IMG/VR virus record: IMGVR_UViG_3300021964_010723
DNA length: 64,000 nt
From: a virus
Taxonomy: Duplodnaviria > Caudoviricetes
Strand: one strand, 5' to 3'
The translations under genes were made by a program, and so were the position numbers. Every line of letters starts with the position of its first letter. The stretch's first letter is position 1. This document shows, one piece after another, positions 18,990 to 23,824 of this stretch. The notes below the pieces were generated by a model. That model saw nothing but the letters and a program-made list of their open reading frames with translations, had not been told where the DNA came from and did no database searches.

Positions 18990-19121
18990 ATATCAGCGGG
19001 TTAGTGCTAAGTCACTGTGATCACAAGGGATCTTTTTTGTTGACTTTCCCAGTTCGATCCACTATACTATTAAGACAGTGAGCGAACAGCTCCAATTGCA
19101 AACTCCACACTAGGAGACTCC
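18990..19121 (+). promoter_or_regulatory. Early cassette P2 (operator class)
   Basis: Degenerate palindrome; TTGACT(19040)-17-TATACT; GAGC-GAACA-GCTC; CTCC-ACACTA-GGAG. Confidence 0.8.
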
Positions 19122-19352
19122 ATGAACAGTTTCACCCGCTCAGCCCATCCATACTACACAGACCGAGACTTCTGTGACAAGCTCACACTATACCGGACAG
19201 CCTGGAGTACCATACACGAGACCTATGTAGGACTCCGTGCGGTATGGCGTGATCCTAACAATGTTCCTGTCATCTCAGCCCATGTGCTAGGCACTCCTGA
19301 AGAGGAGACACATCTGTTCCGTCCAACTGAGTTGATCAACTACGTCCTCTAA
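19122..19352 (+). CDS. Hypothetical early protein
   Basis: Follows cassette SD. Confidence 0.65.
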   Translation: MNSFTRSAHPYYTDRDFCDKLTLYRTAWSTIHETYVGLRAVWRDPNNVPVISAHVLGTPEEETHLFRPTELINYVL

Positions 19353-19452
19353 AAAAATAAAAAAAATGGTTGACTTCCGAAAGGGAGTCAGCTATACTAT
19401 TAATACAGTGAGCGAACGGCTCTTCCTTCCAAAACTCCAACTAGGAGATCCA
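19351..19452 (+). promoter_or_regulatory. Early cassette P3 (A-tract class)
   Basis: A-tract; TTGACT(19370)-17-TATACT; GAGC-GAACG-GCTC; CTCC-AACTA-GGAG. Confidence 0.8.
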
Positions 19453-19773
19453 ATGCCAGAACTATCCAATACAGTTTACTCATTCTGCTCAGATCCCAGT
19501 CACGGTTGGCTAGCAGTTCCGCAGGCTGATCTCGCCCGTGTAGGTCTTTCCGCTGCAGACCTGTCAACATTCAGCTTTTGGGACGCGGAATACTTCTACT
19601 TAGAAGAGGACATGGACTATGCGATCTTCTGTCGTGCCTTTGAGCGCACCGTAGGTCACGCTCCAAACGTGAGATTTATTCCCTCAACAAGAGGCAGACA
19701 TTCAATCCGCCGCAAGAACCGCAACATCATTGGTTGTACAGACAGTTCAAAACTCATCTCTCTAATGGTATAA
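19453..19773 (+). CDS. Hypothetical early protein (true start MPELS)
   Basis: ATG after the cassette SD; SDPSHGWLAVP...YLEEDMD motif. Confidence 0.7.
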   Translation: MPELSNTVYSFCSDPSHGWLAVPQADLARVGLSAADLSTFSFWDAEYFYLEEDMDYAIFCRAFERTVGHAPNVRFIPSTRGRHSIRRKNRNIIGCTDSSKLISLMV

Positions 19774-19955
19774 AATGGAAGTAGAAGCAATCGTAAGGAT
19801 CACGTTAAAGGACGGATATGACCTTTCAAACCCAGATCGCGTCATAGAAGTGCTTAATGAAATGGATTATGAGTTTACACACGAGGCGATCGAAGACACT
19901 GAAATCGTAGACATCAATTGGGAGATTGACTGATGACATAAAAGATCCTTAACAA

Positions 19956-20089
19956 GATCAGTGACTTACAGCTAAGTCACTGATCCTACAGGGAATCATT
20001 TTTGTTGATTTTTTTGCCCCAATCAACTATACTATTAAGACAGTGAGCGATTAGCTCGTCCTTCCAATAACTCCAACTACGGAGATCCA
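19956..20089 (+). promoter_or_regulatory. Early cassette P4 (operator class)
   Basis: Perfect palindrome GATCAGTGACTTA-CAGC-TAAGTCACTGATC; TTGATT(20005)-17-TATACT; GAGC-GATTA-GCTC; CTCC-AACTAC-GGAG. Confidence 0.85.
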
Positions 20090-20296
20090 ATGTCAAGCAT
20101 TCCATTCGTTAGCAGAGCACAGATGACTTTCCGCCCAAAAGCAGAAAAGCGCTCAAGGAACTTGGACGCAGACCTGCGCACGAGCCAAGTCTACCTACTA
20201 GAGGGCAGGACTGTTGAGGAGACTATGAAGTCAGCTCGTCTAAACAATCGTCGCTACGAAATGATCGGAGGCAAGAAATTTTTGGTAGTCAGCTAA
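20090..20296 (+). CDS. Hypothetical basic early protein
   Basis: Follows cassette SD. Confidence 0.65.
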   Translation: MSSIPFVSRAQMTFRPKAEKRSRNLDADLRTSQVYLLEGRTVEETMKSARLNNRRYEMIGGKKFLVVS

Positions 20297-20387
20297 AAAA
20301 AAGGTTGACGGCAGGGCCTCGCCCTGCTATACTATTAAGACAGTGAGCGAAAAGCTCTTCCTTCCAAAACTCCAACCGGGAGATCCA
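20294..20387 (+). promoter_or_regulatory. Early cassette P5 (A-tract class)
   Basis: TTGACG(20305)-GCAGGGCCTCGCCCTGC-TATACT; GAGC-GAAAA-GCTC; CTCC-AACCG-GGAG. Confidence 0.85.
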
Positions 20388-20594
20388 ATGTCAGATACAC
20401 GAAAAGCCACTAACCGACTATTAGAACTAGTAGGCGACGGACTGCTAGATCAGTATCAGGTAATCCTAGCCTGCGTAAAGTATATGAGCGAGGACGATGT
20501 TGCAGACATGTGTCACCTAAACGAGTTTTTTGAGCAGGAGGACGAGGACCTAATGGACGACTTCAACTATGCGGGCAGTCGTCATCATTATTAA
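20388..20594 (+). CDS. Hypothetical acidic early protein (true start MSDTR)
   Basis: ATG after the cassette SD. Confidence 0.65.
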   Translation: MSDTRKATNRLLELVGDGLLDQYQVILACVKYMSEDDVADMCHLNEFFEQEDEDLMDDFNYAGSRHHY

Positions 20595-20686
20595 AAAAAA
20601 GGTTGACACGAGGCGTTGAGCCTGCTATACTATTAAGACAGTGAGCGACAAGCTTGCATTTTTCCAATCTACGCTAAGAGGGCACA
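20592..20686 (+). promoter_or_regulatory. Early cassette P6 (A-tract class)
   Basis: TTGACA(20603)-17-TATACT; GAGC-GACAA-GCTT. Confidence 0.85.
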
Positions 20687-21064
20687 ATGGCAACAAGAGC
20701 AAGAATTGCATACCGCTACACAGACGGATCATATGTTTCTGCTTATCATCATTGGGACGGCTATTTAGACGGCTTAGGACTACTGTTAACAGAACACTAT
20801 ACAGATCCTAAACTAATTGAGAAATGCATACAGAAAGGCAACGCTTCTACATGGACTCCAGAGCCTGAGAACAATAATTACTATCACAACGAGCGTTGTA
20901 TGACACATGCCGACACGAAGGCACTAATGGAAGACGCTTGGAACATGGATGAGGAATATCTTTACGTATACTCAGAAAAACTGCAAGGTTGGAGTGTACG
21001 ATTCCGCAACGGAGATATGACACGGATCTCAGCTGAAAGTATTTTGTCAGCAAGAGAAAAATAA
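20687..21064 (+). CDS. Conserved-type hypothetical phage protein
   Basis: MATRARI...Y.HWDGY..GLG..L pattern recalled from many phage ORFs. Confidence 0.7.
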   Translation: MATRARIAYRYTDGSYVSAYHHWDGYLDGLGLLLTEHYTDPKLIEKCIQKGNASTWTPEPENNNYYHNERCMTHADTKALMEDAWNMDEEYLYVYSEKLQGWSVRFRNGDMTRISAESILSAREK

Positions 21065-21149
21065 AGGTTGACAGCAGGGCCAGGCCCTGCTATACTATTA
21101 AAACATTGAGCGAGTCAGCTCACTTTTCCAACTCTATACGAGAACTAGC
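21061..21149 (+). promoter_or_regulatory. Early cassette P7 (A-tract class)
   Basis: TTGACA(21068)-GCAGGGCCAGGCCCTGC-TATACT; TGAGC-GAGTCA-GCTCA. Confidence 0.85.
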
Positions 21150-22587: not shown

Positions 22588-22832
22588 CCACAGCAGGGGC
22601 TTAGGCCCCGCTGTATGTATACGTAACTATCCTAACCTAAAGGAGATCAATGATCGAAGACAACCGCACCAGCAAAGATATCCGCAAGGAGATCAAGCAA
22701 TTGAAAAAGCTTGTGAAGGTAAAGCAAGAACTGTTAGGCATCGTGCTGATGCAGGAAGAGCTAAGCCAGATCAAACTACAGAAGACTTTCGACGCGGCCG
22801 GTAACTAATTAATTTAATCTAAGGAGCACGAC

Positions 22833-23015
22833 ATGGCACAGGTAACCAAGCGAGTACAATCACTTTCACAGACAGTACAAGAAGTAGAAGAAGACATCTG
22901 CTGGCTGCAGCGACATGCAGTGAACGGCATCGTACCGCAGAAGGTACAGAGAGAACTGCAAGACCTGCAGCGGACGCGAGCTAGCCTGATTGAACGAAAG
23001 ACAGAGCTGGCGTAA
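22833..23015 (+). CDS. Small coiled-coil hypothetical protein
   Basis: SD AAGGAG. Confidence 0.55.
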   Translation: MAQVTKRVQSLSQTVQEVEEDICWLQRHAVNGIVPQKVQRELQDLQRTRASLIERKTELA

Positions 23016-23025
23016 AGGATTCGTT

Positions 23026-23102
23026 CTGCGTGTAGTTCAGTCTGGTAGAACACTTGTTTTGGGAACAAGAGGTCGTTGGTTCAAGTCCAGCCACGCAGAC
23101 CA
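23026..23102 (+). tRNA. tRNA-Pro(UGG)
   Basis: CTTGT-TT-TGG-GA-ACAAG arm; acceptor CTGCGTG/CACGCAG; CCA. Confidence 0.92.
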
Positions 23103-23106
23103 TTAC

Positions 23107-23182
23107 GGGGGATTAGCTCAGCTGGGAGAGCGCTTGATTTGCATTCAAGAGGTCAGCAGTTCGATCCTGCTATCCTCCACCA
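23107..23182 (+). tRNA. tRNA-Ala(UGC)
   Basis: CTTGA-TT-TGC-AT-TCAAG arm; G3:U70 wobble in GGGGGAT/ATCCTCC; CCA. Confidence 0.93.
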
Positions 23183-23191
23183 CACTTCACG

Positions 23192-23434
23192 ATGAGAATC
23201 ACAATGACAACGATCCAGAAACGATACAATAAACTAAGACAGATGTCAATCCAGGAATTAGAAACAGAACGATCCAGTCTGTATGACGCGATGGCAGAAG
23301 AAGAAGCAGATCCCTACGGAGGATGGGGCAGCTGTCTCCACGACAGCCTAAGCCTGGATGTGTCAATTGTAGAAGAGGTGCTGGACGAAAAAAAGAAAGC
23401 CAACAAGATCAATGACTTAGCCCTAACCTGCTGA
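23192..23434 (+). CDS. Hypothetical acidic protein
   Basis: ORF downstream of the tRNA pair. Confidence 0.5.
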   Translation: MRITMTTIQKRYNKLRQMSIQELETERSSLYDAMAEEEADPYGGWGSCLHDSLSLDVSIVEEVLDEKKKANKINDLALTC

Positions 23435-23527
23435 TATCACAAGAGATCTTTTCTGTTGATTTTTTGGACCGGATCAGATATACTATATGCATAGTGAATG
23501 ATACCACAACGCCAACTAGGAGCGAAC
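23407..23527 (+). promoter_or_regulatory. Early cassette P9 (operator class)
   Basis: GATCAATGACTTA-GCCC-TAACCTGCTGAT; TTGATT(23456)-17-TATACT; SD AGGAG. Confidence 0.75.
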
Positions 23528-23722
23528 ATGACACGAGAGCAGATCCAACAAGCAACACAGGCATTCCTTGCAAACGGCGGAGAGATCCAGAAGATGCCAG
23601 AGCGCAAATCCTACACCTGGGCAGACATCAGCACGATGCTGGAGAGGATACTAGATCAGGTAGACGGCATTGATGACGAAGTTGAAGCAGGAGGATATGA
23701 CGAAGCCGCAGTAGGAATTTGA
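23528..23722 (+). CDS. Hypothetical early protein (true start MTREQ)
   Basis: ATG after SD; AFLANGGEIQK motif. Confidence 0.65.
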   Translation: MTREQIQQATQAFLANGGEIQKMPERKSYTWADISTMLERILDQVDGIDDEVEAGGYDEAAVGI

Positions 23723-23824
23723 AAATAATTTAAAAAAATGGTTGACTTCTCCGCAGGAGTCAACTATACTATATAGACACTGAGCGAACAGCTCCACTCC
23801 GCCCACTCCACACTAGGAGACCAC
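23722..23824 (+). promoter_or_regulatory. Early cassette P10 (A-tract class)
   Basis: TTGACT(23742)-17-TATACT; GAGC-GAACA-GCTC; CTCC-ACACTA-GGAG. Confidence 0.85.

Follow-up and report, generated by a model that had tools for sequence, protein, structure and literature searches.

A transcribed leader hairpin in the early promoter cassettes of a T4-like jumbo phage

What does a small hairpin do at the predicted start of nearly every early message of a large phage? This question is raised by a 64,000-nucleotide stretch of Caudoviricetes DNA (IMG/VR record IMGVR_UViG_3300021964_010723), referred to as the window in the following, which holds 11 tandem sigma-70-type early promoter cassettes on its + strand (18368..24585, in the region between ~18.3 and 24.7 kb). 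Nine of these 11 cassettes carry the motif GAGC-(5 or 6 nt)-GCTY, whose 5' arm starts about 11 nt (10-12) past the -10 element TATACT. A sequence-only reading had listed the nine leaders and their nine loops just as we find them, but gave their span as 19079-23795; the first hairpin, at 18406-18422, lies upstream of this, and the true span is 18406-23794. The same reading regarded the motif as a nut-like RNA element, comparable to the boxB hairpins of lambda and P22, for antitermination, stabilization or translational control. As we describe here, the element is indeed a cis-acting RNA of the sense strand. Its features fit stabilization or translational insulation best, as far as they can be judged from sequence, and do not support antitermination.

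Pairing and conservation of the leader hairpin

The hairpins are listed below, with hyphens separating the arms from the loop.

18406..18422, + strand: leader hairpin 1, GUGAGC-GUAGA-GCUUGC, 6 bp including two G.U pairs, -7.1 kcal/mol
19080..19092, + strand: leader hairpin 2, GAGC-GAACA-GCUC
19410..19422, + strand: leader hairpin 3, GAGC-GAACG-GCUC
20043..20059 (core 20045-20057), + strand: leader hairpin 4, (GU)GAGC-GAUUA-GCUC(GU)
20345..20357, + strand: leader hairpin 5, GAGC-GAAAA-GCUC
20641..20657, + strand: leader hairpin 6, GUGAGC-GACAA-GCUUGC, followed by AUUUUUCC; terminator-like in a consensus scan
21107..21122, + strand: leader hairpin 7, UGAGC-GAGUCA-GCUCA, a hexaloop, ahead of an AAA-ATPase gene (21150-22151)
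22265..22281, + strand: leader hairpin 8, GUGAGC-GACAA-GCUCAU, -8.2 kcal/mol
23782..23794, + strand: leader hairpin 9, GAGC-GAACA-GCUC
24596..24615, + strand: alternative hairpin of cassette 11 at the same position, UGCAG-CUUG-CUGCG followed by U6; terminator- or attenuator-like
23479..23527, + strand: cassette 9, the sole cassette without a 5' hairpin, with a short leader before an open reading frame (ORF) for a SutA-like protein that binds RNA polymerase

The stems, previously given as 4-5 bp, comprise 4-6 bp once G.U pairs are counted, and their predicted stabilities range from -5.3 to -8.2 kcal/mol. On both strands of the window, the pattern GAGC-N4-6-GCTY is matched 20 times, compared with 7.0 +/- 2.7 times in shuffled sequences, none of which (0/100) reaches 20; five chance sites aside, the matches are the nine leaders. 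An Rfam scan yielded no match on the leaders up to E = 5, and only tRNAs at the gathering score.

With the related phages described below, the cassette family was represented by 37 distinct cassettes. Of these, 32 have a stem of 4 bp or more at the fixed anchor; when the 5' arm was held fixed and the 3' part shuffled, such stems arose on average in 3.8 cassettes (maximum 11 in 2000 shuffles). Covariation across homologous leaders, which had been proposed as a check on the element, is present: in both a MAFFT and a covariance-model alignment, 77% of cells pair, as opposed to 30-50% once the partner has been shifted by 1-3 columns, and the covariation score was matched by 6/500 shuffles of the former and 1/500 of the latter. 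As these shuffles ignore relatedness, we take them as support rather than as proof. At the level of individual pairs, position 4 is G-C in 25 cassettes, G.U in 5 and A-U in 2, position 3 is A-U in 26, G-C in 2 and G.U in 1, and position 1 is C-G in 28 and U.G in 1. Compensatory changes produce the stems GGGC/GCCC, AAGC/GCUU and GCAG/CUGC, and in some cassettes the entire stem at this position has another sequence. One divergent phage has UGGGC/GCCCA and GUGGGC/GCCCAC, a second phage has GUAAGC/GCUUAC, and cassette 11 has GCAG/CUGC, where the stem is retained with differing loops in two relatives. Read on the sense strand, the stems contain about 20 G.U pairs but just three A.C mismatches, all at stem edges. 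This asymmetry indicates that the transcript, rather than the duplex DNA, is the folded molecule.

Between orthologous cassettes, the two arms differ at 1.9% and 0% of positions, the loop at 16.4%, the leader at 11.7% and the region of the -10 element and the start at 5%, which bears out the earlier remark that stems stay fixed while loops vary. In 20 of 32 hairpins, the loop begins with G and ends with A above a C-G closing pair; loop positions 2-5 vary between orthologs. We conclude that the element is an RNA hairpin on the sense strand, selected for the pairing of its stem and largely free in its loop.

Promoter cassettes, predicted transcript start and relatives

The cassettes share a layout in which a near-consensus sigma-70 promoter is followed by a leader of 40-55 nt, an AGGAG-type ribosome-binding site and a small ORF; we write the promoter layout of the family as TTGAYN-N17-TATACTAT-N4-ACA. 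In the window, the -35 element is TTGAC, TTGAT or TTGC, separated from TATACT by a 17-nt spacer, with 9-11 of 12 consensus matches, and an A-tract precedes it in six of the 11 cassettes. The leader folds into three parts, namely the 5' hairpin, a G-free linker rich in C, U and A, and a second hairpin, CUCC-N5-6-GGAG, over the ribosome-binding site. Cassettes without the 5' hairpin lack the long leader as well. A further class of stem-loops lies in the spacer between -35 and -10; these are strong in four of the 11 promoters and weaker in two more.

18391, 19063, 19393, 20028, 20328, 20626, 21091, 22250, 23479, 23765 and 24580, + strand: starts of the -10 element TATACT
19429-19441, 20064-20077, 20359-20371, 22282-22294 and 23801-23814, + strand: second leader hairpin CUCC-N5-6-GGAG, pairing the Shine-Dalgarno (SD) sequence, in most of the leaders that bear a 5' hairpin
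19365-19398, + strand: spacer stem-loop of promoter 19393, -17.6 kcal/mol
20310-20327, 21073-21090 and 23737-23764, + strand: spacer stem-loops of promoters 20328, 21091 and 23765, -14.2 to -14.6 kcal/mol

In two of the four strong spacer stem-loops, the -35 hexamer is itself part of the stem. In one relative, the SD-pairing hairpin is replaced by CUGC...GCAG.

This arrangement recalls the promoter-early stem-loop (PeSL) cassettes of T4-type phages (Arbiol et al., 2010, PMC2839356; Comeau et al., 2014, PMC4122927). Like these, the cassettes combine a near-consensus sigma-70 promoter, an A/T-rich upstream tract and an SD sequence and start codon at the 3' end with a stable stem-loop in or over the spacer (four cassettes, -14 to -18 kcal/mol). 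They likewise stand in tandem ahead of small ORFan genes; this part of the T4-like genome is plastic, with insertions, deletions and swaps at cassette borders. Three traits of PeSLs are found here, namely the promoter and SD layout, the promoter stem-loop and the link to gene insertion, deletion and replacement. The stem-loop of the published cassettes is located upstream of the start site, within it or immediately before it, and has been interpreted as terminating the upstream gene (PMC2839356, PMC4122927); termination by such a stem-loop was shown in the earlier study (PMC2839356). The present cassettes differ in having a second, short hairpin, which is predicted to make up the first ~20 nt of the downstream message; no other part of the cassette is as conserved. 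A transcribed leader hairpin of this kind is described in neither PMC2839356 nor PMC4122927. Judged by their sequences, we consider the cassettes to be PeSL-type modules with an added, previously undescribed 5' leader hairpin.

How close the hairpin lies to the 5' end depends on where transcription starts. After TATACT, A7 and Y8-A9 are invariant in the cassettes, and A7 or A9 is the likely start, which would leave 1-5 unpaired nucleotides before the hairpin; on the RNA as predicted, the hairpin lies at about +3 to +6. A start in the A7/A9 region is supported by unrelated phages, in which TATACT-AT-N4-ACA promoters drive leaderless genes whose ATG lies 10 nt past the -10 element. Words of the array were found in salt-marsh and aquatic metatranscriptome libraries (at least 40% of them in salt-marsh runs, up to 43%). 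The salt-marsh runs are available as assembled contigs that break at the repeated cassettes, so that neither 5' ends nor strand can be read from them, and they do not prove transcription or read-through.

The window comes from an uncultured salt-marsh phage. Its terminase is of the T4 type (Pfam), and the nearest cultured relatives by this protein are the Pseudomonas jumbo phage PA5oct and its kin (54% amino-acid identity). An exact-pattern scan of viral contigs recovered the same kind of array in four long records, with 13, 11, 6 and 3 cassettes, and in short contigs; two further cassettes lie on an ENA contig reached via a neighboring gene. The nearest record (G001) does not contain any cassette, and a megablast search of the array against cultured phages returned a tRNA as its sole match. 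Orthologs of the AAA-ATPase, at up to 74% amino-acid identity, keep a sigma-70 promoter, but their leaders are short and unstructured. Among all the promoters collected, 69% of those in the family have a 5' hairpin of at least -3 kcal/mol that starts no more than 7 nt from the inferred transcript start, as do 12-19% of similar promoters in other phages, the leaders of which fold no better than shuffled sequences. Given these proportions and the unstructured leaders of the orthologs, the hairpin is specific to a lineage rather than general to such promoters, and, as far as the retrieved sequences go, it is confined to a narrow phage clade. Two scans of viral contigs with loose promoter patterns mostly returned other phage groups, including a widespread TATACTATATGTATAGTTAGAAA promoter family and leaderless genes; a further scan of viral contigs added no new family members. 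A scan of metagenome contigs, whose pattern had a 16-nt instead of a 17-nt spacer and so missed most of the family, returned L335 and L356 as its only members of the family.

Within the clade, the cassettes are mobile. Their content differs between the window and two related records (G002 and G003), and contigs from the salt-marsh RNA libraries join 20080 to 20379 and 24296 to 23765, both at repeated leader or promoter modules; one of these joins holds 26 letters of another promoter spacer between its two sides. Joints at repeated modules imply that relatives differ by the deletion or reordering of whole cassettes.

Several observations concern the surroundings of the array and of its promoters. 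The ORF-free region ahead of it (17790-18300) contains purine-rich repeats and TTTGTATATT repeats, and the matching place in an ENA relative (L375) holds at least six copies of a repeat of ~25 nt (GAAACTAAATATTATGTTTTCC). The 64-residue early ORF behind the hairpin-less cassette (23528-23722, + strand) matches the Pfam SutA RNA-polymerase-binding family (PF20661; E 1.3e-8, 34.5 bits, cut-off 29.3). Its product appears to be a phage-encoded mimic or homolog of a Pseudomonas-type RNA-polymerase-binding factor, and the match hints at a gammaproteobacterial host. The TATACT-AT-N4-ACA layout recurs in other marine phage groups (metagenome contigs L331-L364, and L130-L241), many of them with leaderless genes, and one such group has a different hairpin at the start of the transcript, ACACU-9 nt-AGUGU.

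Proposed protection or insulation, and competing roles

What, then, is the hairpin selected for? On the sequence evidence, GAGC-loop-GCUY may well be a 5'-terminal protective or insulating hairpin on the early messages of a T4-like jumbo phage, and it is this reading that we tentatively favor. The hairpin would act by shape alone, because it keeps a fixed distance to the promoter, is indifferent to the sequence of its stem and is free in its loop. Protection from 5'-end-dependent decay is our choice among shape-only roles since it is an established one for a hairpin at the extreme 5' end: 5'-terminal stem-loops are known stabilizers of Escherichia coli mRNAs, and RppH requires unpaired 5' nucleotides (PMC3997798). 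The stabilizing 5' stem-loops of ompA and papA (Emory, Bouvet and Belasco, 1992, as cited in PMC3997798) are likewise small hairpins a few nucleotides from the 5' end in which pairing, not sequence, matters. The same precedence of pairing over sequence is seen here in compensatory and wobble changes, alternative stems and free loops. Differences exist as well, in that ompA and papA are single host genes with measured half-lives, whereas here a modular repeat sits on a whole temporal class of genes and the 5' end is predicted.

In mechanistic terms, base pairing of the first nucleotides of the message would slow 5'-end-dependent decay. If the host is a proteobacterium, this decay would be the work of RppH and RNase E; alternatively, it would be a phage-induced attack on unstructured, host-type 5' ends. 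As a plausible second benefit, the G-rich start of the transcript would be locked away from the C/U-rich leader. A mobile PeSL-like cassette, composed of A-tract, -35, spacer stem-loop, -10, 5' hairpin, G-free C/U-rich linker, SD hairpin and start codon, could thereby give each shuffled gene the same stable and translatable 5' end.

Several points speak against this proposal. The cassettes are a mixture of paralogs and orthologs, so that their counts are not independent events. The start site was inferred from promoter geometry, and with it the position of the hairpin relative to the 5' end; moreover, a start at A7 leaves five unpaired nucleotides for the 4-bp versions, which is close to the limit for protection in E. 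coli. Close relatives do without the hairpin, which argues against a general need for it. Finally, the G...A loop ends and the invariant 5' half (ACAGUGAGCG) are conserved beyond what bare 5' pairing requires.

The loop ends keep a protein-binding role alive. The hairpin could be the binding site of another RNA-binding factor, of phage or host, that marks the early class of messages, for instance so that they are shut off on time, degraded or translationally controlled when expression switches from early to middle. We consider this unlikely, even though such a factor would account for an element that is shared by unrelated genes of one temporal class, that is restricted to a lineage as its partner protein would be, and that in 20 of 32 cases keeps both the C-G closing pair and the G...A ends of the loop. 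The ends are equally explained by structure, since G...A on a C-G pair forms a stabilizing sheared mismatch under nearest-neighbor rules, and they may simply add stability to a 4-bp stem. In addition, at least three unrelated stem sequences, with loops of 4 to 6 nt, occur at the same position, and none of the 30 ORFs in and before the array encodes a recognizable RNA-binding domain.

Alternatively, the hairpin and a pyrimidine-rich tract behind it might stop or slow RNA polymerase at about +30, as a promoter-proximal attenuator or pause that tunes very strong promoters. Three leader hairpins look terminator-like in the consensus scan (18406, 20641, 24596), and the hairpin of cassette 24580 is directly followed by U6, an arrangement conserved in three phages. 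Most of the remaining leaders do not conform to this: at least five U within 8 nt follow just two of the ten hairpins in the window, the others being succeeded by CACUCC, CAAUUG or CCUUCC, and stems of -5 to -8 kcal/mol are weak for terminators. Attenuation fits cassette 24580 and perhaps 20626, not the rest, and is improbable as an account of the array.

Two further explanations dispense with a role for the RNA, and we give little credence to either. In the first, the motif is a DNA-level element, either a palindromic operator for a repressor of the early promoters or a hot spot for cassette recombination. The inverted repeat GAGC-N5-GCTC does overlap +5 to +20, a classical roadblock position, and cassettes do recombine, as the joints 20080->20379 and 24296->23765 and the differing content of relatives attest. 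A single operator protein would, however, be intolerant of half-sites that change together within one phage, as they do in L005 (GAGC, GGGC, GAGC/GCTT), and loops of 4 to 6 nt together with ~20 G.T on the sense strand, where A.C is rare, speak against a DNA site. In the second, the palindrome has no function of its own and was copied along with a duplicated promoter module. All copies do stem from one cassette family, with a near-invariant 5' half as gene conversion would produce, but a mere hitch-hiker should not change at 0-2% in its arms next to 16% in its loop and 12% in the adjacent leader, nor show compensatory and wobble changes that preserve pairing.

Comparison with boxB and a candidate RNA-binding protein

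A more elaborate and very doubtful proposal regards the hairpin as the RNA partner in an RNA-protein switch that is specific to this lineage of lytic T4-like jumbo phages. A phage protein would read the C-G-closed G...A loop at the 5' end of each early message and control the early class as a unit, whether through read-through of the PeSL stem-loops, a timed shut-off or the sparing of these messages from a phage-induced purge of mRNA. The candidate protein has 81 residues (9949-10194) and is encoded downstream of a sigma-70-type promoter at 7196. It contains the stretch RRKAAIER, which compares with RRKLAIER in the RNA-binding helix of P22 gp24, and it is restricted to the phage lineage, as is the hairpin; most ORFans here share such a restriction, however. 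Among 5.8 billion proteins, it forms seven clusters, all of them of exactly 81 residues. Homologs with 62% identity read RQKSAVER, so that the RRKAAIER stretch is not kept. A confident structure prediction (predicted local distance difference test score, pLDDT, 94.6) folds the protein into a hairpin of two helices with the basic stretch inside helix 1, and its best Foldseek match is an engineered ROP variant (E 0.35), a helical hairpin of generic type. It has no Pfam or PHROGs family, no sequence match in the PDB and no tblastn match among phages even at E = 10, and it does not match N proteins by phmmer, tblastn or Foldseek. Its gene is always followed by a 352-residue gene and then by a gene for a virion structural protein of ~1850-1940 residues; a place in a tight operon that ends in a virion structural protein speaks against an early regulator of the N type. 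If the proposal held, it would represent N/nut-like or Rop-like logic outside the temperate lambdoid phages.

The promoter at 7196 (7196-7225) is itself followed by a tRNA-like RNA (promoter and RNA together 7196-7325, + strand), which has a 7-bp acceptor stem ending in ACCA and a T-arm GAGG-UUCAACU-CCUC, although its D region is odd and its extra arm long. It is called by neither ARAGORN nor Rfam (at the gathering score) and is conserved in the ENA relative L375 at ~2990.

There remains the original comparison with boxB, according to which an N-like arginine-rich protein would bind the pentaloop and enable RNA polymerase to read through the stem-loops between cassettes. The loops quoted for this comparison, GAAAA/GAAGA in lambda and GACAA in P22, agree with GenBank records, where boxB reads GCCCU-GAAGA/GAAAA-AGGGC in lambda (nutL GAAGA, nutR GAAAA) and GCGCU-GACAA-AGCGC in P22, and where boxA (CGCTCTTA / CGCTCTTTA) precedes it by 8-16 nt. 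The likeness lies in a short stem, a C-G-type closing pair and a purine-rich loop of 5 nt: a GNRA-like pentaloop could be formed by six of the nine window loops (GAACA and GACAA twice each, GAAAA, GUAGA), among which GAAAA is identical to the loop of lambda nutR and GACAA to that of P22. The potentially terminating PeSL-type stem-loops in four promoter spacers would offer something to read through, and these were the only candidates, since the consensus scan found no canonical terminators of the hairpin-plus-U-run type between cassettes, in line with the earlier observation that clear intrinsic terminators are lacking there.

The differences weigh more heavily. A boxA (CGCUCUUUA-like) has no match with up to one mismatch on the + strand of 18300-24700, and the RNA ahead of the hairpin is only ~4-10 nt long. 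Lambda has one site per operon, with nutL ~50 nt and nutR ~240 nt away from the promoter, whereas here nine sites lie within 5.4 kb, at nearly every gene, at about +5 and each behind its own promoter; as every gene has its own promoter, read-through is not needed. The boxB stem has 5 bp and its GNRA-like pentaloop has one base flipped out; with one base removed, G-N-R-A can be obtained for just 12 of the 32 family loops (38%), being excluded for GAUUA, GAACG, GUUCA, GACCA, AAUUA and AUGCC, orthologous loops drift by 16%, and other stem classes replace GAGC/GCUC at the same position. Unlike the lambdoid phages, this is a lytic T4-like jumbo phage, in which we found neither boxA nor an N homolog and in which the loops are not conserved. 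With no boxA, one site per gene, drifting loops, alternative stems and no N homolog, we reject the identification as a nut site and regard any N-type antitermination at these hairpins as highly improbable.

Implications for early gene expression and gene shuffling

The resemblance to boxB is instructive nonetheless, for it illustrates that boxB-like pentaloops can arise without an N system. PeSLs, which are thought to drive gene shuffling in T4-type phages, have so far been described as promoter plus terminator only. That the best-conserved piece of the present cassettes is a transcribed 5' hairpin suggests that the mobile module carries a standard RNA 'front end', one that would give each gene it captures stable expression early in infection. 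If this is true, the leader hairpin would be a natural counterpart of the 5' insulator and stabilizer hairpins used in synthetic biology, and it would offer a handle on how giant marine phages keep their early messages alive while the mRNA of their host is destroyed.

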